A stretch of DNA of 64,000 nucleotides from Escherichia phage OLB35: the sequence record MH992122.1; one strand, 5' to 3'. Position numbers and translations under genes: made by a program. The notes under the pieces are model-generated. The model searched no databases, was not told the origin of the DNA, and saw nothing but the letters and a program-made list of their open reading frames with translations. Position 1 is the stretch's first letter. Every line of letters starts with the position of its first letter. Below, in pieces: positions 4,988 to 56,300 of the stretch.

Positions 4988-6676
4988 TTATGAAACAGTC
5001 ATTACAGTAAATCGTCCAACTTTACTCATCTGAAGATGTTGTCCATAACGTTGAGGGTCATGGTCTCGATGAGAGATAATGAACACGTTAGTATTTTGTA
5101 AACTTCCAAGAATGGTATCTATAGCCTTAACAGCTTCAGAATCTACAGCGCCGTCAAAAACCTCATCAAGAATCAACGTGTTGATTTTAACACCAGAAAC
5201 CTTTTCAGCAATATCTCGCCATGTAAACAACAATGCGATATCGATACGTGCCTTTTCACCTTGACTAAATGAAGCATAACTAAAATCTTCACGACCACGT
5301 GATTTTATAGATTCATTGAATTCTTCATCAATAGAAAACACGTAATCAGCTTCCATGATTTTAAGGTAATGGTTAATCTGCTTGTTGAACAGAGGCACAT
5401 ATTTTTTAATGATAGCACCTTTAATACCAGAATCTTTTAACATATCTGTGATAATACCACGATGGTATTTTTCAAGAACGATATCCGATTTTGTTTTAAT
5501 GATTTTATCAAGTTCTTTTTGAAGCAAAGCTATCTCATCGGCATGGTCGATAAATTCTGCCGAGGCTTGCTCTATTGCAGCTTTAACTTTCTTAGCTTTA
5601 TCAATAGTGGCAATCATTGCTTGTTTCTTGGTACGAATATCAGATGCAAGGTCCTGTTTAGTCTTAACATTAGCTCTATATTCGTCCACTAGGACACTCA
5701 GATTATCTCTGTGACAGGTAAGTTGCTCGAATGAGTGATTACATTCATGAAGCTTATCGGTAATCTTAGAGACAATAGGATCACCCTGGTGCAACTGTGA
5801 TGCACAAGTAGGACATGTACCGCCATCGTGATACATCTTAATAACTTTGTTATACGAGTCAATTTTAGATTTAATCAAGAATGCTTCTTGTCCGATCTTG
5901 TTGAATGCCTCAGTAGGGTCTTCGTCAAGAACGATATTAAGTAGTCGCTCATTAGCTTCTTCGATTTCTGCTTTTAATGAACGAGCTTCTTTGGCTAGGT
6001 CGTCATACATATTCTGTAGACGCGCTACATTATCGCCAGATAATTTCTTTTGACGTTCGATATTCTCGTTATAAATCTTAATTTGTTGGATAATACCATC
6101 TTTCTTGGCATCGAGAACTTGTCCCTGGGAATTAAGTTCTCGAACTTGAGACTTATTGATTTTATCCATTTCAGCGAGTGTTCCAACTTCTAATAAGTCT
6201 TCAACAAGCTTTCTGCGAGCAGGGGTGTTAAGAGCCATGAAAGGGGTATACCCTGCCGTCCCAAGCACAACGATCTGTTTAAAAGACGCGTATGACATTC
6301 CGATGCTACGTTCAAATTCTTCTTGGAAGTCACGACTGCTGGCAGATTCATCAAGACGAACACCGTCAACGGAGATTTCGAAAATATTGGGCTTTTGGCC
6401 ACGTTTAATGAAGTATTTTTTATCATCAAATTCCATCCAAAGCTCAACTAAGAGCTCTTTCTTGTTCGTGCTATTAATGATTTGTCCTTTCTTAACATCA
6501 CGAAATGGTTTACCGAAAAGTCCGAAAGTAATGGCTTCTAACATCGTAGATTTACCACCGCCATTTTTACCAGTGATTAATGTCTTTTGGACTTTATCTA
6601 ATTGGATATCAATAGGATTCCCACCTACCGACATGATGTTTTGATAACGAACACGATTTAATTTAAATGATTTCAT
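4988..6676 (-). CDS. 46: Recombination endonuclease subunit gp46 (SbcC/Rad50-like ATPase)
   Basis: 562 aa; P-loop GKNGGGKST, long coiled-coil middle, C-terminal ABC-type motifs; precedes 47. Confidence 0.9.
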   Translation of the reverse strand: MKSFKLNRVRYQNIMSVGGNPIDIQLDKVQKTLITGKNGGGKSTMLEAITFGLFGKPFRDVKKGQIINSTNKKELLVELWMEFDDKKYFIKRGQKPNIFEISVDGVRLDESASSRDFQEEFERSIGMSYASFKQIVVLGTAGYTPFMALNTPARRKLVEDLLEVGTLAEMDKINKSQVRELNSQGQVLDAKKDGIIQQIKIYNENIERQKKLSGDNVARLQNMYDDLAKEARSLKAEIEEANERLLNIVLDEDPTEAFNKIGQEAFLIKSKIDSYNKVIKMYHDGGTCPTCASQLHQGDPIVSKITDKLHECNHSFEQLTCHRDNLSVLVDEYRANVKTKQDLASDIRTKKQAMIATIDKAKKVKAAIEQASAEFIDHADEIALLQKELDKIIKTKSDIVLEKYHRGIITDMLKDSGIKGAIIKKYVPLFNKQINHYLKIMEADYVFSIDEEFNESIKSRGREDFSYASFSQGEKARIDIALLFTWRDIAEKVSGVKINTLILDEVFDGAVDSEAVKAIDTILGSLQNTNVFIISHRDHDPQRYGQHLQMSKVGRFTVMTVS

Positions 6677-6927: not shown

Positions 6928-7156
6928 TACACGCTTCAGCCATTTTAAGAATAGAGCCAGGAGTATCGTTGTCCATTATATTAAAGCTAAATTCAATAGC
7001 CCAGTCGGTACAGACATGAACGGCTTTAACTTCATTGCCTTCAACGCGTAATGGCTCAATCCAATACTTGATAGTGTTCTCGAATCCATCATCATCTTTA
7101 ACGTCTATTTCAACTTCAAGCCCAAGCCCAGCATTGTTAAATTCATCTAAAGTCAT
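6899..7156 (-). CDS. Hypothetical acidic protein (46.2-like)
   Basis: 85-aa ORF between 46.1 and 47. Confidence 0.45.
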   Translation of the reverse strand: MTLDEFNNAGLGLEVEIDVKDDDGFENTIKYWIEPLRVEGNEVKAVHVCTDWAIEFSFNIMDNDTPGSILKMAEACIEDAYNDED

Positions 7157-8172
7157 TGTGTTGCCTCAATATAAAGTTCGTTGGAATATTTGACCAGCGC
7201 TTCTCTGTCTTCGTCTGAGATATCCGGAATCGCGTCAATATATTCTTTAATGATATCTTGAAGTGATTTAATCTCGATTTCCTGGTCGTCATCAGATTCA
7301 ACACTGTTATCAACTTTAGAAACCATACGAAGAGAGTGAACTACTTTTTCAAGTTCAGATTCAAACTTAGTCAACTCTGAATCAATTTCTGATACTATAA
7401 CACGTACGGCTAGATTAGTATAATCAGAATAATTAATTTTGCCTTTAAACGGATAAGTGATTCGTCGATGCCATGTCGTTTCATTGGGAATAAATTCCAT
7501 ACGTTCAACAACAGTGTCAAATACCCAGAATCCTCGCGGATCGTTCTCATCACCTGCAGTAAGGGTCCATGGTGTCCCAATATATTTGACGTTAGCAGCT
7601 TCAGAGATTGTGTGGAAGTGGCCAGACCAGACTTGTTTATAGGTCTTTAAGAAATCAGGTTCAAGCCCATGAGACTTCATTCCTTTATAGAAATAAAAGC
7701 CGTTCAGTTCCCAGTGCCCAACACAGTACGCTGCGGAAGAAGTCTTGATGTGCTCTAAGATTTCACCTGTATTTTCTTCACACATCCACGGAACGATATC
7801 GATCAGACATCCGTCAAAATCTACAGTAGTTGGATGTTCGTAAATAGTAAAGTTTTCAAATTGAGTTAACAATTCAGAAACAGTGTTAGGTGTTATTGTA
7901 TTCTTAAACGCCATGTCATGGTTTCCTATCGTGACATGAACGTGAATGCCTGCCTTAGAAATCATATCAACTATTTCACGATTGAATTCCATCGTACGAT
8001 GTGTAATTGCTTTACGGACGTCAAACCAATCACCGTACTGAATCCAAGTTTTAATACCGTGTTTCTTAGAGTATTCAATTGCTTGACGAATACCATCACG
8101 TTGAATATCTTGAACCCATGGGTCGTCCTGTTTAACGCCGATATGGAAGTCACCTAAATGTAAAATTTTCAT
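7153..8172 (-). CDS. 47: Recombination nuclease subunit gp47 (Mre11/SbcD-like)
   Basis: MKILHLGDFHIG...GNHD phosphoesterase motifs, T4 gp47-like; the track ORF (to 8250) carries 26 extra N-terminal codons. Confidence 0.9.
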   Translation of the reverse strand: MKILHLGDFHIGVKQDDPWVQDIQRDGIRQAIEYSKKHGIKTWIQYGDWFDVRKAITHRTMEFNREIVDMISKAGIHVHVTIGNHDMAFKNTITPNTVSELLTQFENFTIYEHPTTVDFDGCLIDIVPWMCEENTGEILEHIKTSSAAYCVGHWELNGFYFYKGMKSHGLEPDFLKTYKQVWSGHFHTISEAANVKYIGTPWTLTAGDENDPRGFWVFDTVVERMEFIPNETTWHRRITYPFKGKINYSDYTNLAVRVIVSEIDSELTKFESELEKVVHSLRMVSKVDNSVESDDDQEIEIKSLQDIIKEYIDAIPDISDEDREALVKYSNELYIEATQ

Positions 8173-8218
8173 AAGTCTAACGCCGTTATCGCGATGCAAA
8201 TTAAAACCACAGAAATAA

Positions 8219-8244
8219 ATAAAAAAGGAAGCACTAGGCTTCCT
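8219..8244 (-). terminator. Rho-independent terminator
   Basis: Minus-strand GGAAGC-CUAGU-GCUUCC hairpin followed by a U6 tract, just upstream of the gene 47 start. Confidence 0.6.
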
Positions 8245-8416
8245 TTCCAATTAATACACCGTACAGAGGCTCATTTGAACTTTTAAATCGAATTGGCTTG
8301 TACGTAATAGTTCCTTCGGCTTTAGCTTTATCATAAGACTCTTTAAAACGTCTCATTCTTTCTGCTTTGCCTTTACGGATTTTATCGAAATTTTCAGAAG
8401 TCGGGATGTTCGTCAT
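8234..8416 (-). CDS. Hypothetical small basic protein
   Basis: 60-aa ORF (MTNIPTSENFDKIRKGK...) in the slot where T4 has a-gt; the terminator hairpin overlaps its stop. Confidence 0.4.
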   Translation of the reverse strand: MTNIPTSENFDKIRKGKAERMRRFKESYDKAKAEGTITYKPIRFKSSNEPLYGVLIGKEA

Positions 8417-8455
8417 GCATAAGCACCTCTCAGAAAAAGCCACCTGTCCACGTTA

Positions 8456-8662
8456 TCATCGTTTCCACCATTTCTTAACTTGAAATGAATCAACCCACAC
8501 GAGTTGTTTTGGGTCTGCCTTTACAATAGGCGGACAAATTTCTGTAATAGAACCGTCGTGATATTCCTTTTCAGAAATTTTAACACAAAGAGGACCTCCC
8601 AATTTAAGGGTGAACCCTGCGTTCAAATTCAGACGTTTAAACTTTGTTTGAAGTAGTGCCAT
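8456..8662 (-). CDS. Hypothetical protein
   Basis: Minus-strand ORF of ~68 aa in the 47-55 interval. Confidence 0.4.
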   Translation of the reverse strand: MALLQTKFKRLNLNAGFTLKLGGPLCVKISEKEYHDGSITEICPPIVKADPKQLVWVDSFQVKKWWKR

Positions 8663-8960
8663 TAATGATGTCCTCAATAGCCTGACGAGTAGTAACCCAT
8701 TGGATTTTAATTAACTTTTCATTATATGGTTGTCGTAGAATATCCCGAGATTTCTTAATAGCATATTCGTAAGCTTCGAAGTTGTTTTGAATTGCTGCTT
8801 CTTGAGCATGAGCATAAAGACGGTTTAGTTCAAAACGATTCTTTTTAAGAATCTTTTCGGATTTTTTACGTGCTTCAGCTTCATTTTTCTTTTGGATTTC
8901 TTGTAGCATTTTAGCTACTGCATCTTCTGCTTCTTTATTTTCAATAATCTCGGTAGTCAT
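8637..8960 (-). CDS. Hypothetical protein
   Basis: 107-aa charged/helical ORF in the 47-55 interval. Confidence 0.45.
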   Translation of the reverse strand: MTTEIIENKEAEDAVAKMLQEIQKKNEAEARKKSEKILKKNRFELNRLYAHAQEAAIQNNFEAYEYAIKKSRDILRQPYNEKLIKIQWVTTRQAIEDIINGTTSNKV

Positions 8961-8961
8961 A

Positions 8962-9177
8962 TTATCTCATTAAATTAAAATAAAAACGTCCGTCCTCTTC
9001 AATACAGAACTCGTACTCAACTGGAGTCCCATTTATCGAAAATGACACGTCATGTGGGTTCAAAGGGTCGATGTCAAAATTAATTTTAAATTCTCGACCC
9101 AACAGTTTTACCAAATAAGGGATTGCTTCGTCAAAAGGTTCTTCTAAGTAGTTAGAGATATCAATTGTCATCCTCAT
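8962..9177 (-). CDS. Hypothetical protein
   Basis: ORF starting at an internal Met ([15 protein letters not shown]...) and overlapping the gp55 stop. Confidence 0.4.
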
Positions 9178-9718
9178 ATAAAAAATCCAAACTAGGCGAA
9201 TCGCTAACAACTTCCTTCTTTTCAGCCCCAGGAGCTTTATAAGCGGATTCTTCATAATGCGTCATTTTATCGTAGATGTCTTGAATAAACGTTTCATCTA
9301 CCAACGCTACCATATCATCGTCATGACTGTCGTAGACATTATGAACGAAGTAACTATATTTCTTTGCAACTTCCTTACGTTCTTTTTTGATACGTTGGAC
9401 AAAAGCATTAAAACAAGCTCGAGTTATGTATGCATGTGGGTTATTGTACTTAGTTTCGTCGAAATTATGAAGTCCCTTAATAGAGGCTTCAATCCCATCT
9501 GCAATCATCTCCTGCTTCCAAGACTGGGTATATCCTGAAAAGTTGAAACGTTTGGACAGGCCTTCGGCGATAAGCATAATTGCTAAACCGATGGTATCAT
9601 TCTGACGAATAATTTTGTTTGGGTCTTTATTATTTAAGAGCTCCTTTTTCCACTCGATTATAGCGGCGAGAAGCTCTTTATTATTCACATAGTTATTTTT
9701 AGGTTTTTGTTCAGTCAT
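9161..9718 (-). CDS. 55: Late-promoter sigma factor gp55
   Basis: ...[31 protein letters not shown]...[39 protein letters not shown] matches T4 gp55. Confidence 0.9.
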
Positions 9719-9790
9719 AAGTACCTCTTGGCTCAATTCATAGGTCTATTATATCATAATATTTAGAGACCTATCTTAAAGCACGAGATA

Positions 9791-10060
9791 CTATCGGAGC
9801 AAACAATACGCCTGGAATACTTTTTCCATTAAACGTTTGAACTCATGGATATCGATATAAAGCTCAGTAAGACCGGCATTATAAAGAAAATCTAAAAAGT
9901 TCTCATGTGTTTCGTTATAGTCGCCTTCGTTTAATTGAGATACATGAGTTTCCCAAAAACCAACACCTTTAACGAATGGAAAATACGTGACTTTCATGTA
10001 TTCGTCAACATAAAATTCGCCCAGCTTTTCTTCAGTTATACTGATTCGAGTTAATTTCAT
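9791..10060 (-). CDS. Hypothetical protein
   Basis: 89-aa minus-strand ORF in the densely packed early block. Confidence 0.45.
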   Translation of the reverse strand: MKLTRISITEEKLGEFYVDEYMKVTYFPFVKGVGFWETHVSQLNEGDYNETHENFLDFLYNAGLTELYIDIHEFKRLMEKVFQAYCLLR

Positions 10061-10284
10061 TCTAGTTCCTTTGCTGCTTCAAGAGCAGCATCCAGCGAAT
10101 CAAATTGGTCAACGAAATCAATATTCAACGCATCGTCAACCGTAGCATATAACCACCATTGTTTGAATTCGTATTCTAGAATAAATCCAGGACCTTCAAT
10201 CTGAGGAAGACCTAGGCTATTTGTACCAACTTCGTAACCAGCTAGACGCAGGTCATTAATCAAAGTTTCTGTTAATACGCTCAT
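10057..10284 (-). CDS. Hypothetical acidic protein
   Basis: 75-aa ORF with 4-nt overlap to its neighbour. Confidence 0.45.
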   Translation of the reverse strand: MSVLTETLINDLRLAGYEVGTNSLGLPQIEGPGFILEYEFKQWWLYATVDDALNIDFVDQFDSLDAALEAAKELE

Positions 10285-10661
10285 TTTACCGCCTTAACAA
10301 TTTTCAGGTCAACGAATTTTTTCTTACGTTGATTTTTCATACGACGGATAGTCTTTTCAGAGATTTCATGTTTCTGATAAGCTTTAGATTCAACACCAAA
10401 TGCAGCAACGTCAAATTCAGAAAGAATATATTGTACTAGAATTTCACGAATAGAATTACGTCCAATTTTCTGGTCATGTTTTTGCATAATTTCGTAAAGA
10501 CGGAATTCCCACGCGTCAAGAACTTGAGGAGTAACAATATTGCCGGATTCCAGAAGAGCAACAACTTTATCGAAAGCGAAAGAATTAACTACGTTTTTGA
10601 TTTTAGTAGACATATTATTTTCCTCGGTTATTTTATTATCCAACGAGAGAATTATACTCAT
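10281..10661 (-). CDS. Hypothetical protein
   Basis: 126-aa ORF; start may be the internal Met (MSTKIKNV...). Confidence 0.45.
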   Translation of the reverse strand: MSIILSLDNKITEENNMSTKIKNVVNSFAFDKVVALLESGNIVTPQVLDAWEFRLYEIMQKHDQKIGRNSIREILVQYILSEFDVAAFGVESKAYQKHEISEKTIRRMKNQRKKKFVDLKIVKAVK

Positions 10662-13154: not shown

Positions 13155-13625
13155 TTAATCATGTTTCCACACCCCATCGGTATTTGACCAAAGTCGCTGA
13201 TTATCTGATCCTCGCCACAGCTTTTTGGTCGGAAGATTTTTCTCATACTTCCCATCAATAATAACATCAACATATTTAAGCATTTCTAGCTGTTTAATAT
13301 CTTCAAACTTATATCCTGTCCACAACCAAATGCTTTTATTGGGATAAAAATTTTTTACTGTTTGAACAATGCAATGAATAACATCTCGATTGTCAGGATA
13401 GAGAGGGTCTCCTCCAGATATAGTTAATCCTTCTATATAATCATTATTCAAACATTCAATTAATTGTTCTAGTGTTTCACCAGTGAATGGAATACCATTT
13501 CTAGCATTCCATGTTGATTTATTATAACACCCTTCGCATTTATGCAAACACCCTGTAACGAAAAGAACAGTCCTGCAGCCCGGGCCATTCACAAAATCGC
13601 AAGGATAAAATCTATCATAATTCAT
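13155..13625 (-). CDS. nrdG: Anaerobic ribonucleotide reductase activating protein NrdG (radical SAM)
   Basis: CxxxCxxC cluster (GCLHKCEGCYN); sits directly downstream of nrdD. Confidence 0.85.
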   Translation of the reverse strand: MNYDRFYPCDFVNGPGCRTVLFVTGCLHKCEGCYNKSTWNARNGIPFTGETLEQLIECLNNDYIEGLTISGGDPLYPDNRDVIHCIVQTVKNFYPNKSIWLWTGYKFEDIKQLEMLKYVDVIIDGKYEKNLPTKKLWRGSDNQRLWSNTDGVWKHD

Positions 13626-15439: not shown

Positions 15440-15909
15440 TTTAAACTCTTTCTAAGCTGCTTTTTGAATGAAGCTATTAATTGTGTTTTAGTATCAGATT
15501 CATTATATTCAAATCCTCTTTGAAGCATCTCAGTCATCATTTCCTCTTTACCTAGTCTTGAGAACTCTTTAGTTTTGTCTGGAACAAAATTAGGATGGAT
15601 ATTATTATCAGAATAATCTTGTTTCAAATAAACAAGAAGAGCTTCAAGCCATTCGAGGTAGTCGACATCACGACCTTTAAGACCAGAACGGTTGAACTTA
15701 TGCTTCATTTGACCTTCTGCTGCATTGCACAGGTTACATAGTAAACCACGAACCTTACCAGCTTTTGGCCCGTTTAATTCATGGTCGTGGTCAAGATGGT
15801 TACCTTGAACATCAGGGTCTAATTCACGGTGGCAAATAGGACACTTACCGTTCTGTGCATCATAAAATTTTTGTTTTTCTTCTTTATATTTTGCGCCTGA
15901 TAATAACAT
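15436..15909 (-). CDS. 49: Endonuclease VII (Holliday junction resolvase) gp49
   Basis: MLLSGAKYKEEKQKFYDAQNGKCPICHRELDPDVQGNHLDHDHELNGPKAGKVRGLLCNLCNAAEGQ... near-identical to T4 EndoVII. Confidence 0.92.
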   Translation of the reverse strand: MLLSGAKYKEEKQKFYDAQNGKCPICHRELDPDVQGNHLDHDHELNGPKAGKVRGLLCNLCNAAEGQMKHKFNRSGLKGRDVDYLEWLEALLVYLKQDYSDNNIHPNFVPDKTKEFSRLGKEEMMTEMLQRGFEYNESDTKTQLIASFKKQLRKSLK

Positions 15910-23363: not shown

Positions 23364-24353
23364 TCATTTATAGTATGAATTATGATTTTCGAGATAGACT
23401 TGCTCAAGGAAATCATCCCAGAAACTCATATCTACCTTTTGTTGCATACCGTTCTTAGCGGCTTGTTCTGACGCGTGTTCAACTTGGTCAACGATATCTT
23501 CTAGGAATTCTTGTACAGTTTTAAACGTATGTTTACCAAGCTTAACATCGAGAATAAATGGAGCATCCTGAAGTGGGTAAACCAGGTCGCCGGTTTTGTA
23601 AATTTCCAATAATTGAAGTCCACCACGACACGCATGACTCAATGCTTTCCAGTCAATACCTTCATTGGCTTCTGCCTTACGAGCACGTTCACCATAGTTC
23701 TCTTCCAGTTTAACCAGGATGGCATTGAACTCTTTATTGGTTAACGTGTCTTGGAATTTACGGTCTAACAGATTATAGAATGTTTGCTTACCTGTTTTCT
23801 CGTTTTCGGTTTCAACCCACGAAGCAAATTCACCTATAGGCAGAACATTCTTCATATGTGATAAACGAATTACTGCACCGTTATCAAAGTATTGTCCCCA
23901 TTCATTAGAACGTTTAAGGGCTTGACGAAGAACAGCCAGTCGAGAACCCTTGACGCCATATTTAGAAGCTTGCTTACGGACATACCCTAAATAAGATTTC
24001 ATGTTAGTGGTATAGAAACGAGACCTGTTATCTTGAATATACTTCCATACATCAGGCAAATCAGATTTAACTACTAGACTTGGTGGAGTGTGAAGCATAT
24101 CTAATGCGACGGTTTCACCATCAGCAGCTAGTTTAAAGAAATATTTGAGACTATACAACTCATGGTCCACGTCGTCTTTTGTGTTCTTAGAAGATGTGTT
24201 ATTCGTGTTCTTGCTCATATGTTCTTTAACGTTACCGGTCAAGATATCACGAGCATGAGGGACATAAATTTCTTTAAAATCGACGTCAGATTCAGGAGTA
24301 GACGTTCCATAAAGGTGGCTACCAAAGTAGCCTTTCATAATTGTTTTCATCAT
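23364..24353 (-). CDS. Pol-beta-superfamily nucleotidyltransferase
   Basis: 329 aa; N-terminal GSHLYGTSTPESDVD fits the G[SG]x9-13Dx[DE] motif. Confidence 0.55.
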   Translation of the reverse strand: MMKTIMKGYFGSHLYGTSTPESDVDFKEIYVPHARDILTGNVKEHMSKNTNNTSSKNTKDDVDHELYSLKYFFKLAADGETVALDMLHTPPSLVVKSDLPDVWKYIQDNRSRFYTTNMKSYLGYVRKQASKYGVKGSRLAVLRQALKRSNEWGQYFDNGAVIRLSHMKNVLPIGEFASWVETENEKTGKQTFYNLLDRKFQDTLTNKEFNAILVKLEENYGERARKAEANEGIDWKALSHACRGGLQLLEIYKTGDLVYPLQDAPFILDVKLGKHTFKTVQEFLEDIVDQVEHASEQAAKNGMQQKVDMSFWDDFLEQVYLENHNSYYK

Positions 24354-27753: not shown

Positions 27754-28232
27754 TCAACAATCACAATTTCTAGTTTAGTGGAATACGTATCTAAAATCTC
27801 TTCGATGACATCCCAGTTTCCGCCACCGATACCTGCACCAATTCTTGGCATATAAATTACAGGCTTTGTTATCTTATTCTTTCCGAATTCATTTAATTCT
27901 ATTATACAATTCATTAAAGCAGGGTACTCAAAATTAGGTCCCGGCTCAAACTGTGTATAAAGATTAAAGCAATAAGCTTTATGGGTCTTAAAATATTTTT
28001 CATAAACCGAATAAGTCCCGAGTTTAGACTCGTCTCCGAATTCGGTTTGAAGTTTATCTGCTTCCAGAATTTTTGGATAAGCCTTTGCCAATTGACCTGC
28101 TACACCGGCACCCATTGTATGAAAACAATTGCACCCATGAGCAATATTATTACCTTTAGAAAACAGGGCGACAATATCGCCCTTGATATAGTTTTTAATC
28201 ACTTGCTGCAAGTCCTCTAGTATAAGAGTCAA
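27735..28232 (-). CDS. Macro-domain-like protein (putative ADP-ribose binding/processing)
   Basis: 165 aa; glycine-rich motifs MGAGVAGQLA and RIGAGIGGGNW resemble macro-domain signatures. Confidence 0.45.
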   Translation of the reverse strand: MTLILEDLQQVIKNYIKGDIVALFSKGNNIAHGCNCFHTMGAGVAGQLAKAYPKILEADKLQTEFGDESKLGTYSVYEKYFKTHKAYCFNLYTQFEPGPNFEYPALMNCIIELNEFGKNKITKPVIYMPRIGAGIGGGNWDVIEEILDTYSTKLEIVIVDWEPLL

Positions 28233-32817: not shown

Positions 32818-33099
32818 CTATTTTTCTGAAGCGCCTGAAATATATTTTTCAAGACGTTGTTTCATCAGCGAGCCGTTCTTAGCGATTTCTTCCGGTTTAT
32901 CGCACATACGCAACAAGGCTTCAAGCTTAGCGATATCACTGGTGCGCTCAAATTTGCGAGTATCTATCTTACTAGCAAGTTCAGAAATACGTGCTAATAG
33001 ACTTTCAGCTTCAACCAAAGCTGCACCTAGCTTAGTTGCAAATGTGTCAGTAGCTTCGTTAAGAATAGATTCTGATAAAAATTCACTATATGTTTTCAT
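32818..33099 (-). CDS. Internal protein (CTS-bearing)
   Basis: Starts [10 protein letters not shown]...; 93 aa; adjacent to lysozyme e. Confidence 0.6.
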
Positions 33100-33557
33100 A
33101 TATACGCTTTCCAAGTTCCTGTTTTAAATGTTGAGATTACGCGTTTCGCGCGATTAGGTGTCTGACGATACCATTTAGATTGGGCTAGATTTACTGCCGC
33201 TTCATCCCAACGTTTCTGTTGAAGCATACGAAGAGAATTAGTAAAACCAGCGACGCCTGCTACACCCATTTGGAAGACCATATTGACCAATGCACACCGA
33301 CGAACTGCATCTAAAGAATCATATACCGGTTTAAGTTTAGCATTAACGTCTTCATTAAATAGCTTTTCAGCCTCATCAAGGGTAATTGTACCGTTGCATT
33401 TACGACCGATCATTCTGTCAAGTTCAGCTTTAGCTACGGCTAAAGACGGGTTCTTTGTTACTAAATGGCCTATGCCAATCGTCCAAAAGCCTTCAGTGTC
33501 TTTGTATAAAGTCAGTCTAAGACCTTCGTCATTACGAAGCATTTCAAATATATTCAT
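33096..33557 (-). CDS. e: Lysozyme (endolysin) e
   Basis: [32 protein letters not shown]... matches T4 lysozyme; appears to lack ~9 residues near T4 positions 70-80. Confidence 0.92.
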
Positions 33558-35827: not shown

Positions 35828-36784
35828 TTATTTGAAAGGTTTTACCATATGGAAATTTTGTTTAAAACGTTTTACATAATCGTCATGTCCTAAGCTTTGG
35901 TACATACTTACAACTTTGCTGTAGTTTTCCCAAGCGTATTCACGGAACCAGCCTGACGTGATTGAAGTACAGACTTTTTCTAATGCCATCATAAAACTAT
36001 CACGTGGATGGATTTCAAAGTTATTAGGAATCTGAGAACGTTCTAACGCTAGTACACATGATTCTTCGTATACGCCGGCTAATTTGACCATTTCTGGTAA
36101 TGATTCGAACTTCTCGCGTGAGGTCATGACTTCAGAACCATCTTTCATATAAAATGTATACGCTGGACGGTCTGTTAGTGCAATGGCTTCGTGAATAGTA
36201 TCATGGTCATACGTATAGATGTCATCTTTAAAGAATGCGCTTTTAGAAGTGTCAAGAACTGGGTGAGCATAGTTCAAGGTTTCTTTCTGGCGTTTCAGCA
36301 TAATTTCAGTAAGTTCATCGTTCAGTGTAACACCTTTACCACGAAGATACTGAATATGGTTCATAGTCTTTAAAAAGAATGGATTATTTTTCTTGAAACG
36401 ATGAGACATCTTAATTGCAAGACACATCTCAGGAGTTGCCCAGTAAAACCCGTTCAAACGGTCTTTAGTCAAATTTTTCTTGGCGTATTTTAAAAGGTCA
36501 TAAGAAGACGTGAAATCTTCAGGAGTGAGTTCACCGACTAATTCACGGACATTAGTGATTGCCGGAACAATATATGCTTCAAAATGAGTTTCGCGTCCAT
36601 TATGGAAGCATTTGAAAACTTGGACATCAGGGTTATCTTGGTGAACATATACACCCATCATTTGATTTTTGAATACATTCCAAGAACCTTGGTCCGCAAT
36701 AAAGTCCCAATCACTATTTTTGATAGCGCTAGAATCAATAAGGCCGTGATAGTGAAGTGCACGAGAACCAATAACTAACATCAT
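35828..36784 (-). CDS. Hypothetical protein (318 aa), candidate enzyme
   Basis: Large ORF (MMLVIGSRALHYHG...) with no motif I can assign. Confidence 0.55.
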   Translation of the reverse strand: MMLVIGSRALHYHGLIDSSAIKNSDWDFIADQGSWNVFKNQMMGVYVHQDNPDVQVFKCFHNGRETHFEAYIVPAITNVRELVGELTPEDFTSSYDLLKYAKKNLTKDRLNGFYWATPEMCLAIKMSHRFKKNNPFFLKTMNHIQYLRGKGVTLNDELTEIMLKRQKETLNYAHPVLDTSKSAFFKDDIYTYDHDTIHEAIALTDRPAYTFYMKDGSEVMTSREKFESLPEMVKLAGVYEESCVLALERSQIPNNFEIHPRDSFMMALEKVCTSITSGWFREYAWENYSKVVSMYQSLGHDDYVKRFKQNFHMVKPFK

Positions 36785-38640: not shown

Positions 38641-39232
38641 ATTCTCTACATTCCATAATAAATTGCTCAAGGATTAAATTGTTAGTGAAATTAGGACTAA
38701 CAACCATAGTTTCATAAAGCGCATCAATAGCACTTAAAGCATCAACTCTCTTAAGCAAAGGCTTGCCTTCATACATAGTTTCAGAATCGACGATTAACGT
38801 AAAGTAGTATTTTTTATTATCGACTAGAACTTCTGTATCGATATAAAACATATTAGTCCTCAGAAGCTTATCTCTAAAACCATAATAATCTTCAGAGCGT
38901 TCGCTGATATATTCCCATTCAGTGTTTAAACAACAAACAGACCACGTAGGAGCAACGAAATCAGTGAATCTAATATCATGGTCTGCAACTAGTTTAGCAA
39001 TAGCTCCGATATCATGAATCATAATACCTGGGGCTAATAAAGATTTTCTGCTATGGCTAGCCGTTTTCTCGGTGGTCTCATAAGAAGACGACCAGTACCA
39101 TTTACGTCCGGTTGCAACATATCGTAATGAATCAACTAAAGACGTAGGTGGATTTACCTTATCTCGGAACTCTTCGAACATTGAGTCAATATCATTATTT
39201 TGGTTTCGCATGTTAACTCCTTTATTATCCAA
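38609..39232 (-). CDS. Hypothetical protein
   Basis: 207-aa ORF; start may be at 39211. Confidence 0.5.
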   Translation of the reverse strand: MDNKGVNMRNQNNDIDSMFEEFRDKVNPPTSLVDSLRYVATGRKWYWSSSYETTEKTASHSRKSLLAPGIMIHDIGAIAKLVADHDIRFTDFVAPTWSVCCLNTEWEYISERSEDYYGFRDKLLRTNMFYIDTEVLVDNKKYYFTLIVDSETMYEGKPLLKRVDALSAIDALYETMVVSPNFTNNLILEQFIMECREYVKANPIHAK

Positions 39233-42404: not shown

Positions 42405-42483
42405 TAAATAACTTTCTATTATGAAAGGCACTTTAGAGCACCTTTGGTAATAGAGGGTATGAATTAATAATAACACATAATTC

Positions 42484-42999
42484 TTAAAGCAAATCAATCA
42501 TTTTAACGGTTGGCAAAACGATTTCTTCTTCAATATAAGCAAATTCGACACGTTCAACTACACGCAAGAAATCGTAATCATAGTATTCAGAAGCATAGCC
42601 AAGAATATCAATAAGTCCTTGAGATATCTCATCGCCTTTCACAAAGAACAGGTCGAATACGCGGGCTTCGTCTTCTTCAGATTTATCACCAAGGTCTACT
42701 TCGATGCCAAAGACCTTTTTAATAAATTCCGGTTGGAGTTGGTCTGAGAACAGTCCTTCAACCAGATATTCGTAGATAATAAGCGAGCAACGACCGAATG
42801 GTGTATTACCGCAATAACGTTCGGCTTTGGTGCTAGAATGACGGCTCTTAAATTTCTTCAAGAGATATTTAAACTGTTGGAGCTCATGCTCTTCCACTTC
42901 AAACAATGTTTTGGTTTTATAGTTGTCACCATCACTTTCATAGGTAGTGACATCAATTACGTAGCCCTTAGGAATTGTACTGCCTAATCGAATATTCAT
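42484..42999 (-). CDS. Hypothetical protein
   Basis: 171-aa ORF. Confidence 0.5.
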   Translation of the reverse strand: MNIRLGSTIPKGYVIDVTTYESDGDNYKTKTLFEVEEHELQQFKYLLKKFKSRHSSTKAERYCGNTPFGRCSLIIYEYLVEGLFSDQLQPEFIKKVFGIEVDLGDKSEEDEARVFDLFFVKGDEISQGLIDILGYASEYYDYDFLRVVERVEFAYIEEEIVLPTVKMIDLL

Positions 43000-44290: not shown

Positions 44291-44578
44291 TTACAGAAGA
44301 GTTTTTGCAATAATTTTAAGCTGAGCTACAGAAATGTGCTTAGCTTTAAACAGTGCAGTCTCTTCAGCCGGAGAGATAACAATAGTAGCGCCATCTTTCT
44401 TAGCAGACCATCCATCCCCTAAGTAAACAGTACCTTTTACTTCTTCGCCGTCAGCCAGACTAATCATTGGTTTGCCCTCACGTCCTTTATTTGCTTTAAT
44501 AACTTCGGAAGTAAGGGTTGCTTCAGTCAGAGTAGAAACGTTAGCATCAGGTGATATAAATTCTTTATAGGTTTTCAT
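44291..44578 (-). CDS. Internal protein I-like (capsid-targeted)
   Basis: Starts MKTYKEFIS...; 95 aa; sits between the tRNA region and 57B as T4 ipI does. Confidence 0.6.
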   Translation of the reverse strand: MKTYKEFISPDANVSTLTEATLTSEVIKANKGREGKPMISLADGEEVKGTVYLGDGWSAKKDGATIVISPAEETALFKAKHISVAQLKIIAKTLL

Positions 44579-45399: not shown

Positions 45400-46134
45400 T
45401 TACCTTAAGATTTTTTCAATTTTATAATAAAGCTCTTCTAACGAGCCGTCGTTTGTAATAACTAAATCGCCTTCTTCAATAGGCAACCCAGCTTCTGTAA
45501 TATGTTTATCAGTGGATTCCGTACCAGAGCGAACCACATGAATAACTGTAGCACCCATCGCTCTAGCGGTTTCCATTTCATGGACTTGGCGTGTATCGGT
45601 TACAACATAGTAATCGAAATCACTTCCAATATAATCCATATAGTTTAATGCAAAAAGCTTAACCCAATACATACGGTCAAATAAATTAACGACAACATCC
45701 GTACCGAGGGCTTGCATAAGACGGCGGATCGACCATGTGTCGTTGATATTATTTATAGCTTCACGCAGGGCTTCATATGGTTTAATATCTAGATATGAAT
45801 ATCCACCTTCTAACGATGATAATACTTTAACATTATTAATTGGTAAATATTGACTTTGTAAATAAATTAGCGCTTCTTCCAATAATTCAATAACATCCAA
45901 CTTATTGAGATTTAATGGTGTTTCACGGTCGTATCCAATGCCTTCAAAGTATTCGTATTTCAACTCTGTGAATACATCAGGATTTTCAGCATGTCTACGT
46001 CCCCAGGCTATTGCTAGAGCGTCTTTAATTGGATATGCTAATTGGTATTTTACGGATTTAAAGTTTGAATTGATGTAATCAGCAGTAGTGTCTTTACCAC
46101 TACGTTTGATGCCACTTAAAAAGATTAGCTCCAT
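45400..46134 (-). CDS. 1: Deoxynucleoside monophosphate kinase gp1
   Basis: P-loop LSGIKRSGKDTTADY; T4 gp1-like; synteny 57A-1-3-2-4. Confidence 0.88.
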   Translation of the reverse strand: MELIFLSGIKRSGKDTTADYINSNFKSVKYQLAYPIKDALAIAWGRRHAENPDVFTELKYEYFEGIGYDRETPLNLNKLDVIELLEEALIYLQSQYLPINNVKVLSSLEGGYSYLDIKPYEALREAINNINDTWSIRRLMQALGTDVVVNLFDRMYWVKLFALNYMDYIGSDFDYYVVTDTRQVHEMETARAMGATVIHVVRSGTESTDKHITEAGLPIEEGDLVITNDGSLEELYYKIEKILR

Positions 46135-53312: not shown

Positions 53313-56300
53313 CAGTAAAAGCGCCAGCAGTCACGAGTCTCAGATTATCTAAATTGTCCGCAAACCAAGTTCAAATTCGCTGGGATGAGGTTGGCGCTAA
53401 TTTCTACTATTTTGTGGAAATAGCTGAGACCAAAACAGCTAATGGGGAAGCAATTCCCCGTAATAGCTATAGATGGACTAATTTAGGATATACCGCTGAT
53501 AACAATTTCTTTGAGTCTGGTTTAAATTCATTAACAACATATATGATGCGTGTGGCTACAGCAGCGGAGGGATTTGAGCAGTCTGATTGGAGATACACCG
53601 AAGAGTTTGAAACATTTGAAATAAACGCTTACACATTCCAACATATGATTGAAATGCAATTAGCTAACGAGTTTATTTCTGAAAAATTTACAAAAAATAA
53701 TACAAACTACGTTGATTTTAATAATGACACTATCATGGCAGCACTGATGAGCGAGTCGTTCCAATTTAGTCCTGCATACACCGATGTGTCATCGATTAGA
53801 AATTTTATAATTGGTGAAAATCGGTATCATGAAATCCAGGGGCATATCCAGGACGTATGTAAAGATATAAATCGAGTATATCTAATGGAATCTGAAGGAA
53901 TTCTTTACCTTTTTGAAAGATTCCAACCTATTGTAAAAGTGTCTAATGATAAAGGCCAAACATGGAAAGCGGTTAAATTGCTTAATGACCGTGTAGGATA
54001 TCCACTTTCACGAACTGTATATTACCAATCAGAATATACGACGTATTTGCTCGGCTATGATAAGATTTTTTACGGGCGTAAATCATCCGATATTCGTTGG
54101 TCTGCTGATGATGTTCGTTTCAGTTCACAAGATGTAACATTTGCTAAAATCGGGGACCGATTAAATTTAGGTTTTGATGTAGAGATTTTCGGTACATACG
54201 CATCATTACCAGGAAACGTATCACGTATTGCAGAAGCTATTACTTGTAATGATGACTATGTTTATATTGCGGCCAGAGATAAAGTTCGCTTCGTTAAAAC
54301 CAGTAACGCTCCTATTGATTCAGATCCATTATCTCCGACCTATTCCGAACGGTTGTTTGAACCTGAGACGTTTACAATAACAGGCAACCCTAAAGCAGTT
54401 TGTTATAAAATGGATTCTGTTGGTGGAAGAATATTCGCTCTTATTATTGGTGAAGTCGAAAACGTTAATGACGACCCAAGAACAAAGCCTATTTTAGATT
54501 CCGTTGATAAAGGTGTATACGTTTTAGACCATGACGCTGGAAAATTTAAAAGGATATTTGGTAATACCGAAGAAGAACGCCGTCGTATAGAACCGGCTTT
54601 CACCAATATGTCTACTGATGGTGTTGAGCTTTATATCTCTTCTAGTAATTTTAAATTTTTAGAATCTGATATTGTTGACGACCCAGAAACGCAATCTAAG
54701 TATGGACTTTTAGGAGCAGTTAAGTATGAATATCCTAGAGAATGGCTCGCAGATAAACATTACCATATGATGATTTTCGCATCAAACGAAGAAAGTAATT
54801 GGGAAACTTTTTCACCAACTCCTATGCAGTATTATGCAGAACCTTTCTTTAGTTATTCTAGAAAATCAGGCACACGTTCTTGGATTAATAACTCTGATAG
54901 AGCGGTAGTGATTTATTCTGATTTGCTTTACACAAAGGTAGTGGAAAGCCACCCTAGCACTTCACCTGATCGTAAAGTTCATGAATACTGGAATGATGGC
55001 GATTGTAAGATTGTTATGCCGAATATAGAATTCACTGGATTTAAAAAATACGCATCTGGTATGTTGTTTTATAAATCATCAGGTGAAATAATTTCATATT
55101 ACGATTTTAGTTATCGTGTTAGAGATAACGTTTCTATAATTTGGAAGCCCACTAACGTATTTTTGACCTCCTCATTACAAAACCAAGAAAAAGAAACTTC
55201 TTGGGTTCCTGTTGAAGAGACTGGTCTAGCTGACCCGGATTTACGCCCATTACTCACTACAATGATGCCAGAGTCTTATCTGTTGGATAATACAAACTTT
55301 GAAGCATTTTGTGAAGCGTATATTCAATATCTTTCTGATGGATACGGGACTCATTATAATAACTTATTGAATTTGATTAAAAATAAATACCCACGAGAAG
55401 AACACGCATGGGAATATCTTTGGTCTGAAATTTATAAACGGAACATTTATTTGAATGCTGAGAAACGTGATTTAGTTTCTAGGTTCTTTGAGTCCAGAAG
55501 TTATGATTTTTATTCTACTAAAGGAACTGAAGCGTCGTATAAGTTTTTGTTTAAAGTTCTTTATAACGAAGACGTTGAAGTGGAAATTGAGTCATCTGCT
55601 GGAACAGAGTACGATATCATAATTCAATCTGATTCTATAAGTGAAGATTTGGTTGGACAAACTATATACACCGCTACAGGTAGATGTAATGTTACATATT
55701 TAGAAAGAAGCTATTCTAAAGGTAAATTACAATGGACTGTGACTATTCATAACCTTTTAGGTAGGCTTTTAGTCGGTCAAGAAGTAAAAGCCGAAAGACT
55801 AGCAGATTTTGAAGGTGAAATAGTTCGCGGTATTAAAGGTAAAGAACTTGCCCAAAACACTATCGATTATTTTAATCGTGGTAGAGCTTATTACGTCATG
55901 AAAATAAAGTCAAATCTTCCATCCTCTCGTTGGAAATCTGACGTACTACGTTTTGTACATCCGGTAGGATTTGGATTTATTGCAATAACCTTATTAACAA
56001 TGTTTATTAATACAGGATTAACGCTTAAACATGTTGAAACTATTATTAATAAATATAAAAATTATAAGTGGGATTCCGGACTGCCTACGGAATATGCAGA
56101 CCGCGTCGCTCGTTTAGACCCTCAAGGTAATGTAGAATTCAATCCTGTTACAGGTGAAGTAATTTATGATGCTGGTCCTTATGCCGGTATCGAATACCCT
56201 TTACCTGCAAATTATAACGAAGAAAATGATAACTCTATTTTCCAAGGACAATTACCGTCCGAACGACGCAAGCCAATGAGCCCATTATTTGATGCATCAG

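Follow-up and report, generated by a model that had tools for sequence, protein, structure and literature searches.

The interval between genes 47 and 55 of phage OLB35 (positions 8173-9160 of the window, i.e., of the whole 64-kb stretch of DNA that was analysed) holds four open reading frames (ORFs) of 60-107 aa and a terminator, and nothing else. An earlier note on the same DNA had described the interval in these terms, and the description was confirmed in every detail; the plus strand of the interval has no ORF longer than 50 aa. The four ORFs are orthologues of the T4 genes a-gt.2 to a-gt.5. Gene 47, whose product is 76% identical to T4 gp47 over all 339 aa (tblastn), forms the right border of the slot that a-gt occupies in T4, and gene 55 forms the left border of the interval; gp47 and gp55 also appear in the annotation of relatives. 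The coordinates of these and the other features discussed are presented in Table 1.

Table 1. Positions in the window of the features discussed in the text.
Feature	Position	Strand	Length	Description
Gene 47	7153-8172	minus	339 aa	Mre11/SbcD-like recombination nuclease subunit; Pfam Metallophos
Gene 47.1 relic	8172-8249	minus	26 codons	Last 26 codons only, WKGSLVLPFLFISVVLICIAITALDL
Intrinsic terminator	8212-8248 (hairpin 8248-8222)	minus		Terminator scan and RNA fold
a-gt.2 orthologue	8234-8416	minus	60 aa	74% to T4 a-gt.2; PHROG 2140
a-gt.3 orthologue	8456-8662	minus	68 aa	69% to T4 a-gt.3; PHROG 1648 (E = 3e-33)
a-gt.4 orthologue	8637-8960	minus	107 aa	57% to T4 a-gt.4; PHROG 951
a-gt.5 orthologue	8962-9177	minus	71 aa	Pfam DUF5491
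Gene 55	9161-9718	minus	185 aa	Late sigma factor; 91% to T4 gp55
nrdC.11 orthologue	23364-24353		329 aa	Pfam RlaP (RNA-repair-associated Pol-beta nucleotidyltransferase)
RB69ORF134c homologue	35828-36784		318 aa	DUF7277 and DUF7275
Gene 1	45400-46134	minus		dNMP kinase; 98.8% to Shf125875 gp1; orthologue of RB69 gp159

The a-gt.2 and a-gt.4 products match Pfam families DUF5486 (E = 2e-26) and DUF2654 (E = 1e-26), respectively, and the a-gt.5 product is 47% identical to its T4 counterpart over its full length. As in T4, a-gt.5 and the 3' end of gene 55 overlap by 17 nt. Across several genera of Tevenvirinae, 815 phage records contain a-gt.2 homologues, and the cassette as a whole is conserved whichever sugar the phage uses. 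The names a-gt.2 to a-gt.5 reflect nothing more than map position in T4 and have no functional meaning; a literature search for functions of these four genes and of 47.1 found nothing. We propose that a-gt.5, a-gt.4, a-gt.3 and a-gt.2 constitute a conserved early cassette, which would be read leftward from gene 55 and ended by the intrinsic terminator, with gene 47 following.

Gene order and genus

In this segment of a T-even-type phage, the early genes lie on the minus strand. The window begins inside gene 43 and continues with regA, 62, 44, 45, rpbA, 46, 47, the a-gt.x cassette and 55, followed by nrdH/G/D, 49, the nrdC.x genes, tk, vs, regB, denV and e, then by two tRNAs, and finally by 57, 1, 3, 2, 4 and baseplate genes. 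The two tRNAs are all that an Rfam scan of the whole window returned.

Positions 7000-10500 are matched by 136 records at 95-99% identity, typically about 97% (megablast), and the fully annotated ones among them are Mosigvirus. Identity to Mosigvirus records is 96.5-97.8% for positions 1-25000 (over the full length, 97.3% to CAU_ECP01 and 96.5% to Shf125875) and 95-98% for positions 25001-50000, and the gene order is collinear with that of Shf125875. Judged by this identity and synteny, the phage can be assigned to Mosigvirus, the RB69-like Tevenvirinae. The RB69-like DNA polymerase reported in the earlier note was also borne out, as residues 1-244 of gp43 are 100% identical to RB69 gp43, and residues 241-501 are 97% identical to it.

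Absence of a glucosyltransferase gene

The absence of a glucosyltransferase-sized gene from the 47-55 interval, the central observation of the earlier note, is upheld by both the ORF map and tblastn. Between gene 47 and a-gt.2 there is no ORF of about 400 aa, and the largest ORF in 8173-9160 has 107 aa. When T4 a-gt was compared with all six frames of the 64 kb (tblastn, no low-complexity filter), only noise was obtained and nothing fell in the interval; the best match (E = 0.015, 27% identity over 69 aa, at 38945-39124) is at noise level. T4 b-gt and gp42 gave best E-values of 2.4 and 1.7 over the whole window, although in T4 b-gt and gene 42 lie past gene 43, i.e., in the region outside the window. 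Degraded remnants of T4 a-gt, b-gt, gp42 or mobB were likewise not found in the window by tblastn, which leaves 47.1 as its only relic. Since the a-gt slot is unoccupied, the phage cannot alpha-glucosylate hydroxymethylcytosine (hmC).

The a-gt slot in other phages

In T4, a-gt indeed lies between genes 47 and 55, in the order 55, a-gt.5-a-gt.2, mobB, a-gt, 47.1, 47. The flanking genes are shared with the window in order and orientation (55, a-gt.5, a-gt.4, a-gt.3, a-gt.2 ... 47), with protein identities of 47-91%. T4 differs in adding the homing endonuclease gene mobB, a-gt itself (400 aa, GT-B) and an intact 47.1, of which the window retains only the relic.

In RB69, NBG1, mar005P1, Shf125875 and CAU_ECP01, the gene content of the interval is that of the window: a-gt is absent, and a terminator directly follows a-gt.2. 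The layout without a-gt is found not only in RB69 but also in Bp7 and JS10 (Dhakavirus), VR20 (Gaprivervirus), Merlin (Moonvirus) and Marfa (Marfavirus), where the order is 55, a-gt.5 to a-gt.2, terminator, 47.1 in some phages, and 47. Homologues of a-gt occur in 657 of the 50,697 phage records searched. Those among the a-gt matches listed are either Tequatrovirus-like, with at least 90% identity, or of the Klebsiella/Raoultella Jiaodavirus type, with about 66%, and there is no Mosigvirus among the matches listed.

In comparison with the window, the Klebsiella phage Mineola (Jiaodavirus) presents the same cassette, i.e., 55, a-gt.5 to a-gt.2, terminator and 47. However, its slot between a-gt.2 and the terminator is filled by an a-gt with 66% identity to that of T4, and the phage has neither mobB nor 47.1. 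As Mineola has a-gt in the same slot, the slot is a polymorphic site for cargo genes within a single transcription unit. To judge from these comparisons, an empty slot is the usual state outside Tequatrovirus and Jiaodavirus and no oddity of OLB35. The interval corresponds to the standard form of the 55-47 region in Mosigvirus, a layout that has already been described.

The terminator and the a-gt.2/47 junction

The terminator hairpin reads GGAAAGGAAGC-CUAGU-GCUUCCUUUUU with a U-rich tail after it. An 11-bp stem encloses a 5-nt loop, inside which lies the TAG stop codon of a-gt.2, and the fold (-13 kcal/mol, z = -3.2) was equalled in stability by none of 200 shuffles. Terminators are annotated at the equivalent position in NBG1, Merlin and Marfa. 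The hairpin is predicted to close the transcription unit formed by gene 55 and a-gt.5-a-gt.2.

Of gene 47.1, only the end is retained. This relic is 46% identical to residues 21-46 of T4 gp47.1 (E = 0.001), and its TGA stop overlaps the ATG of gene 47, as in T4. It has no ATG of its own; the sole candidate start is a GTG at 8234, in the terminator loop. The a-gt.2 stop (8234) and the gene 47 ATG (8172) are only 61 nt apart. In comparison with the alignment of intact 47.1 alleles from Mizar, ESh27, CCU7, VR20 and JS10, 141 nt are missing, which span the 5' half of 47.1 together with a MotA-type promoter and a Shine-Dalgarno sequence. A sigma-70 scan together with a MotA-box pattern search (minus strand, 13258-5526) found no promoter for gene 47 after the terminator. 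Given the 141 nt missing at the junction, neither a promoter nor a ribosome-binding site belonging to gene 47 itself can be recognised. The junction is contiguous in none of the 50,697 phage genome records, and IMG/VR contains no exact match to it.

The junction is a mosaic that includes Dhakavirus/Gaprivervirus-like sequence. The window and the typical Mosigvirus allele (RB69, NBG1, mar005P1, Shf125875) share about 78% identity over the 201 nt around it. In the typical allele, a-gt.2 ends in ...LCG*, there is no 47.1, the hairpin is of a different type, and ahead of gene 47 lie a middle promoter of the MotA-box type, TGCTTTATAAACGGATGATAGAAT, and the Shine-Dalgarno sequence GAGGAAA, whereas the window has neither of these two elements and carries the 47.1 relic. 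A minority type is found in Mizar, ESh27 and CCU7, which have a Mosigvirus backbone and a Dhakavirus/Gaprivervirus-like segment from a-gt.2 to 47.1. Their terminator is identical to that of the window, as are the last 50 nt of 47.1 into gene 47, but they have lost neither the middle promoter nor the Shine-Dalgarno sequence, and their 47.1 is complete (47 aa), with a stop that overlaps the start of gene 47. The window's a-gt.2, in contrast, is mostly of the RB69 type and not of the Dhakavirus type, with 57% identity to the a-gt.2 of CCU7.

Cytosine modification in RB69 and its relatives

Thomas et al. (2018) reported that RB69 DNA has arabinose in place of glucose, and proposed ORF003c as the transferase (PMC6024577). 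More recently, Lee et al. (2026) described the RB69 base as mono- and di-arabinosylated 5-hydroxycytosine (PMC13326640). In that work, the RB69 gene-42 homologue gp48 makes 5-hydroxy-dCMP, a D169N signature marks the 5-hydroxy-dCMP synthases, and co-expression of gp48 with the gene 1 dNMP kinase gp159 brings 5-hydroxycytosine into E. coli DNA; the pathway genes are given as p003, p028, p045-p055 and p159 (PMC13326640). The arabinosyl- and di-arabinosyl-5-hydroxycytosine nucleosides of RB69 were also found in the Mosigvirus NP, as presented in the Durham Collection paper (PMC13390438).

In both Shf125875 and CAU_ECP01, the modification cluster starts 40 nt past the stop of gene 43. It comprises, in order, genes for an arabinose-5-P isomerase, a bifunctional nucleotidyltransferase/kinase, a HAD phosphatase, a U32-like protein, a thymidylate-synthase homologue, a transferase and a thymidylate kinase, and its proteins are 97-99% identical to RB69 p045-p055. 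The thymidylate-synthase homologue is encoded about 4.4 kb beyond gene 43; it shares 98.7% identity with RB69 gp48 and presents SQN in place of the SND of T4 gp42, i.e., the D169N signature. Shf125875 carries a second transferase, the ORF003c homologue, between rIIA and a topoisomerase gene. Of the two GT-B arabinosyltransferases of RB69 (p046:47 and p003), Shf125875 has both (gp045 and gp003) and CAU_ECP01 the first.

None of nine modification-cluster proteins of Shf125875, nor its ORF003c homologue, presents similarity to the 64-kb window (tblastn). As the window starts 1531 nt into gene 43, counted from the start codon, the cluster is expected about 1.2 kb beyond position 1, and the arabinosylation genes are not visible for OLB35 because they are expected outside the window. 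The placing of the modification enzymes elsewhere in the genome by the earlier note therefore agrees with the nearest relatives, in which they lie directly past gene 43 and beside rIIA. Of the published modified-cytosine pathway, gene 1 alone falls within the window; as T4 also has this gene, it does not discriminate between the glucosyl and arabinosyl chemistries.

Under the proposed mechanism, cytosine would be replaced by 5-hydroxycytosine, made as a nucleotide by the thymidylate-synthase homologue, with the gene 1 dNMP kinase presumably responsible for its phosphorylation. Once the DNA has been replicated, one or two arabinoses would be added from UDP-arabinose by two arabinosyltransferases of the GT-B type, and phage enzymes would supply the UDP-arabinose. 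From the near-identical relatives and the published chemistry, we infer that OLB35 would carry both the arabinosylation cluster and arabinosyl-5-hydroxycytosine. Very probably, then, this is an ordinary Mosigvirus region without a-gt, in a phage whose DNA contains arabinosyl-5-hydroxycytosine instead. The earlier suggestion that hmC is not glucosylated and that arabinose may be used instead stands with respect to the sugar, given the missing a-gt and the arabinosylating genus, yet not with respect to the base, which in RB69 and the Mosigvirus NP is 5-hydroxycytosine and not hmC (PMC13326640, PMC13390438).

Alternative explanations

The earlier note had pointed to the ORFs at 23364-24353 and 35828-36784 as places where a replacement transferase or sugar-nucleotide enzyme might be encoded inside the window. 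Both are enzyme-sized, have nucleotidyltransferase features and carry no experimental assignment of function, and the RB69-based annotation gives no T4 gene name for the ORF at 35828-36784. Nevertheless, both turn out to be Pol-beta-type nucleotidyltransferases that are not specific to modification. The ORF at 23364-24353 is nrdC.11, an RlaP protein and not a sugar-phosphate nucleotidyltransferase, with homologues in 1540 phage records, among them those of the glucosylating Tequatroviruses RB14, RB32, RB3 and RB18, where the identity is 78-79%. The product of 35828-36784 presents the Pol-beta signature hG[GS]...DxD, with G6, S7, D25 and D27 invariant in an alignment of 37 sequences, as are H128, H174, H194, D195 and H198. 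Its AlphaFold2 model (pLDDT 91.8) supports, with high confidence, a predicted MenT/ANT-like Pol-beta nucleotidyltransferase, and no fold of the GT-A, GT-B or GlmU/RmlA type was found in it. Its homologues occur in 733 records, which include unrelated phages of Pseudomonas, Stenotrophomonas, Streptomyces and Gordonia and a Mycobacterium prophage. Neither ORF encodes a glycosyltransferase or a sugar-activating enzyme, is restricted to arabinosylating phages or appears in the RB69 pathway table as published. Since glucosylating and unrelated phages have these genes too, neither candidate is a missing enzyme, and it is very unlikely that either or both supply the replacement activity.

It could also be supposed that the phage lost a-gt recently, in the very deletion marked by the 47.1 relic. 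The truncated 47.1 and the missing promoter do indicate that a deletion happened at exactly the a-gt.2/47 junction. However, the closest intact alleles (Mizar, ESh27 and CCU7) have terminator, promoter and 47.1, and yet no a-gt; for this reason a recent a-gt deletion was rejected. In addition, the junction deletion amounts to only 141 nt, the window holds no a-gt remnant, and Mosigvirus is missing from the a-gt matches listed, all of which make this account extremely improbable. A further possibility is that the genome encodes no transferase at all, and that the DNA contains plain cytosine or an unglycosylated hydroxylated base. The window by itself gives no proof of a transferase, as the modification genes lie outside it. 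Against this, Shf125875, CAU_ECP01 and RB69 all keep the modification cluster beside gene 43, Shf125875 has the ORF003c-type transferase beside rIIA, and, as in RB69, the gene 1 dNMP kinase and an internal protein of the IPI type are still encoded in the window. DNA free of any sugar is, hence, highly improbable for this phage.

Implications

The absence of a-gt in itself leaves no novel reading, since both layout and biology are already published: the lack of the T4 glucosyltransferases in RB69-like phages and the arabinosylation of their cytosines have been in print since 2018, and the pathway genes, together with 5-hydroxycytosine as the true base, followed in 2025-2026. In retrospect, the earlier reading had the right direction, an outdated chemistry and the wrong candidate genes. 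The observation is nonetheless of use in annotation, as it places the window in an arabinosylating genus, and it illustrates that the T4 gene map is no safe default for T-even relatives. DNA chemistry sets the sensitivity of a phage to restriction, to CRISPR and to type IV systems such as GmrSD/BrxU, and modified DNA is hard to cut or sequence by some methods.

Private insertions and deletions

Three indels are private to this sequence, none of them present in any public record: the loss of 141 nt at the a-gt.2/47 junction, a gain of 26 nt in gene 43 and a loss of 27 nt in gene e. Together with the mosaic junction, they suggest the genome may be no textbook Mosigvirus, or else that the sequence contains errors. 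The indels may be real mutations, assembly errors or edits; that all three are real and tolerated, and not artefacts of sequencing, assembly or editing, is very doubtful.

In the lysozyme gene e, a clean in-frame deletion near 33346 removes DKAVRGILG. Its flanks are 100% identical to those of many Mosigviruses, and the deletion occurs in none of the 156 matching records.

If the junction is true, the essential gene 47 would be expressed without a MotA-type promoter or Shine-Dalgarno sequence of its own, relying on read-through at the a-gt.2 terminator plus re-initiation or coupling from a 21-codon relic of 47.1.

The 26-nt insertion in gene 43 (773-798, CCGACAATGATCTAGGTTTTTGCAGT) shifts the frame after codon 244 and is absent from relatives. 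It has no second copy in the window (at most three mismatches), and no exact match in IMG/VR, the JGI metagenomes or the GTDB genomes. Neither a -1 frameshift on GGU UUU U nor gene-60-like bypassing finds support in a canonical signal, and the local RNA fold is unremarkable (z = -1.1). In the downstream frame, the insertion gives rise to a TGA stop with AGG-N4-TTG after it; if the insertion is true, production of gp43 from the frameshifted gene would need recoding or split-polymerase expression.

A distinctive a-gt.2/gene 47 junction

Among 50,697 phage records, none has the same junction between a-gt.2 and gene 47 as the window (8172-8260, minus strand). This junction matches the allele of the Mosigviruses Mizar, ESh27 and CCU7, but is 141 nt shorter. 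The missing 141 nt comprise a MotA-type middle promoter, a Shine-Dalgarno sequence and half of gene 47.1 at its 5' end, and in their absence neither a promoter nor a ribosome-binding site belonging to gene 47 itself can be recognised. A 26-codon relic of gene 47.1 is retained, and its TGA overlaps the gene 47 ATG. The GTG at 8234, preceded by AAGGAAG, could be the start of a 21-codon remnant ORF.

Inside its last codons, the a-gt.2 of the window changes from the RB69 type to the Dhakavirus/Gaprivervirus type. CCU7, Mizar and ESh27 carry an a-gt.2 of the latter type, with 57% identity to the window's a-gt.2 protein (8234-8416), together with an intact 47.1. Given this combination occurs in some Mosigviruses, there is inter-genus mosaicism exactly at this position.

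Other features of the window

The coordinates of the remaining features are presented in the table below.

Features located on the minus strand of the window
Feature	Coordinates	Strand	Remark
26-nt insertion CCGACAATGATCTAGGTTTTTGCAGT in gene 43	773-798	minus	gene 43 start codon at 1531
Lysozyme gene e	33096-33557	minus	27-nt deletion at about 33346
DUF7277 + DUF7275 protein	35828-36784	minus	widespread in phages
Internal protein (Ip1) homologue	44294-44578	minus	97.9% identity to Shf125875 Ip1
Middle-promoter pattern matches	5502-5526, 13258-13282, 15502-15527, 27896-27921, 42467-42491, 54374-54397	minus	MotA box + TANNNT

The insertion in gene 43, which encodes the DNA polymerase, splits the His codon that follows residue 244. 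The resulting frameshift makes the N-terminal ORF stop at 611. The downstream frame presents a new TGA followed by AGG-N4-TTG. The inserted sequence is absent from the close relatives Shf125875 and CAU_ECP01, and has no second copy within the window; searches of IMG/VR, JGI metagenomes and GTDB genomes gave no exact match either. An artefact or an edit could account for it, as could a mutation that is lethal or is recoded.

The deletion in gene e is clean and in-frame, and removes DKAVRGILG from the lysozyme. Many Mosigviruses match its flanks at 100% identity, and all of the best 8 of 156 matching records, with flanks at 100% identity, contain the 27 nt. According to a by-eye alignment with the T4 lysozyme sequence, the lost segment presumably corresponds to about residues 72-80, where the long inter-domain helix ends.

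The DUF7277 + DUF7275 protein, with 2221 homologues at E <= 1e-5, is confidently predicted to be a MenT/AbiEii-like Pol-beta nucleotidyltransferase. It has an invariant GS...DxD and a C-terminal helical domain with invariant H128, H174, H194, D195 and H198; its substrate may possibly be tRNA or another RNA.

In T4, IPI* blocks the type IV restriction enzyme GmrSD. As for the Ip1 homologue, the occurrence of this internal protein in an arabosylating phage is remarked on in PMC13326640.

When both strands of the window were searched for the T4 middle-promoter pattern (MotA box TGCTTNA, then TANNNT 10-13 nt on), 13 matches were obtained, against 5.1 expected by chance.
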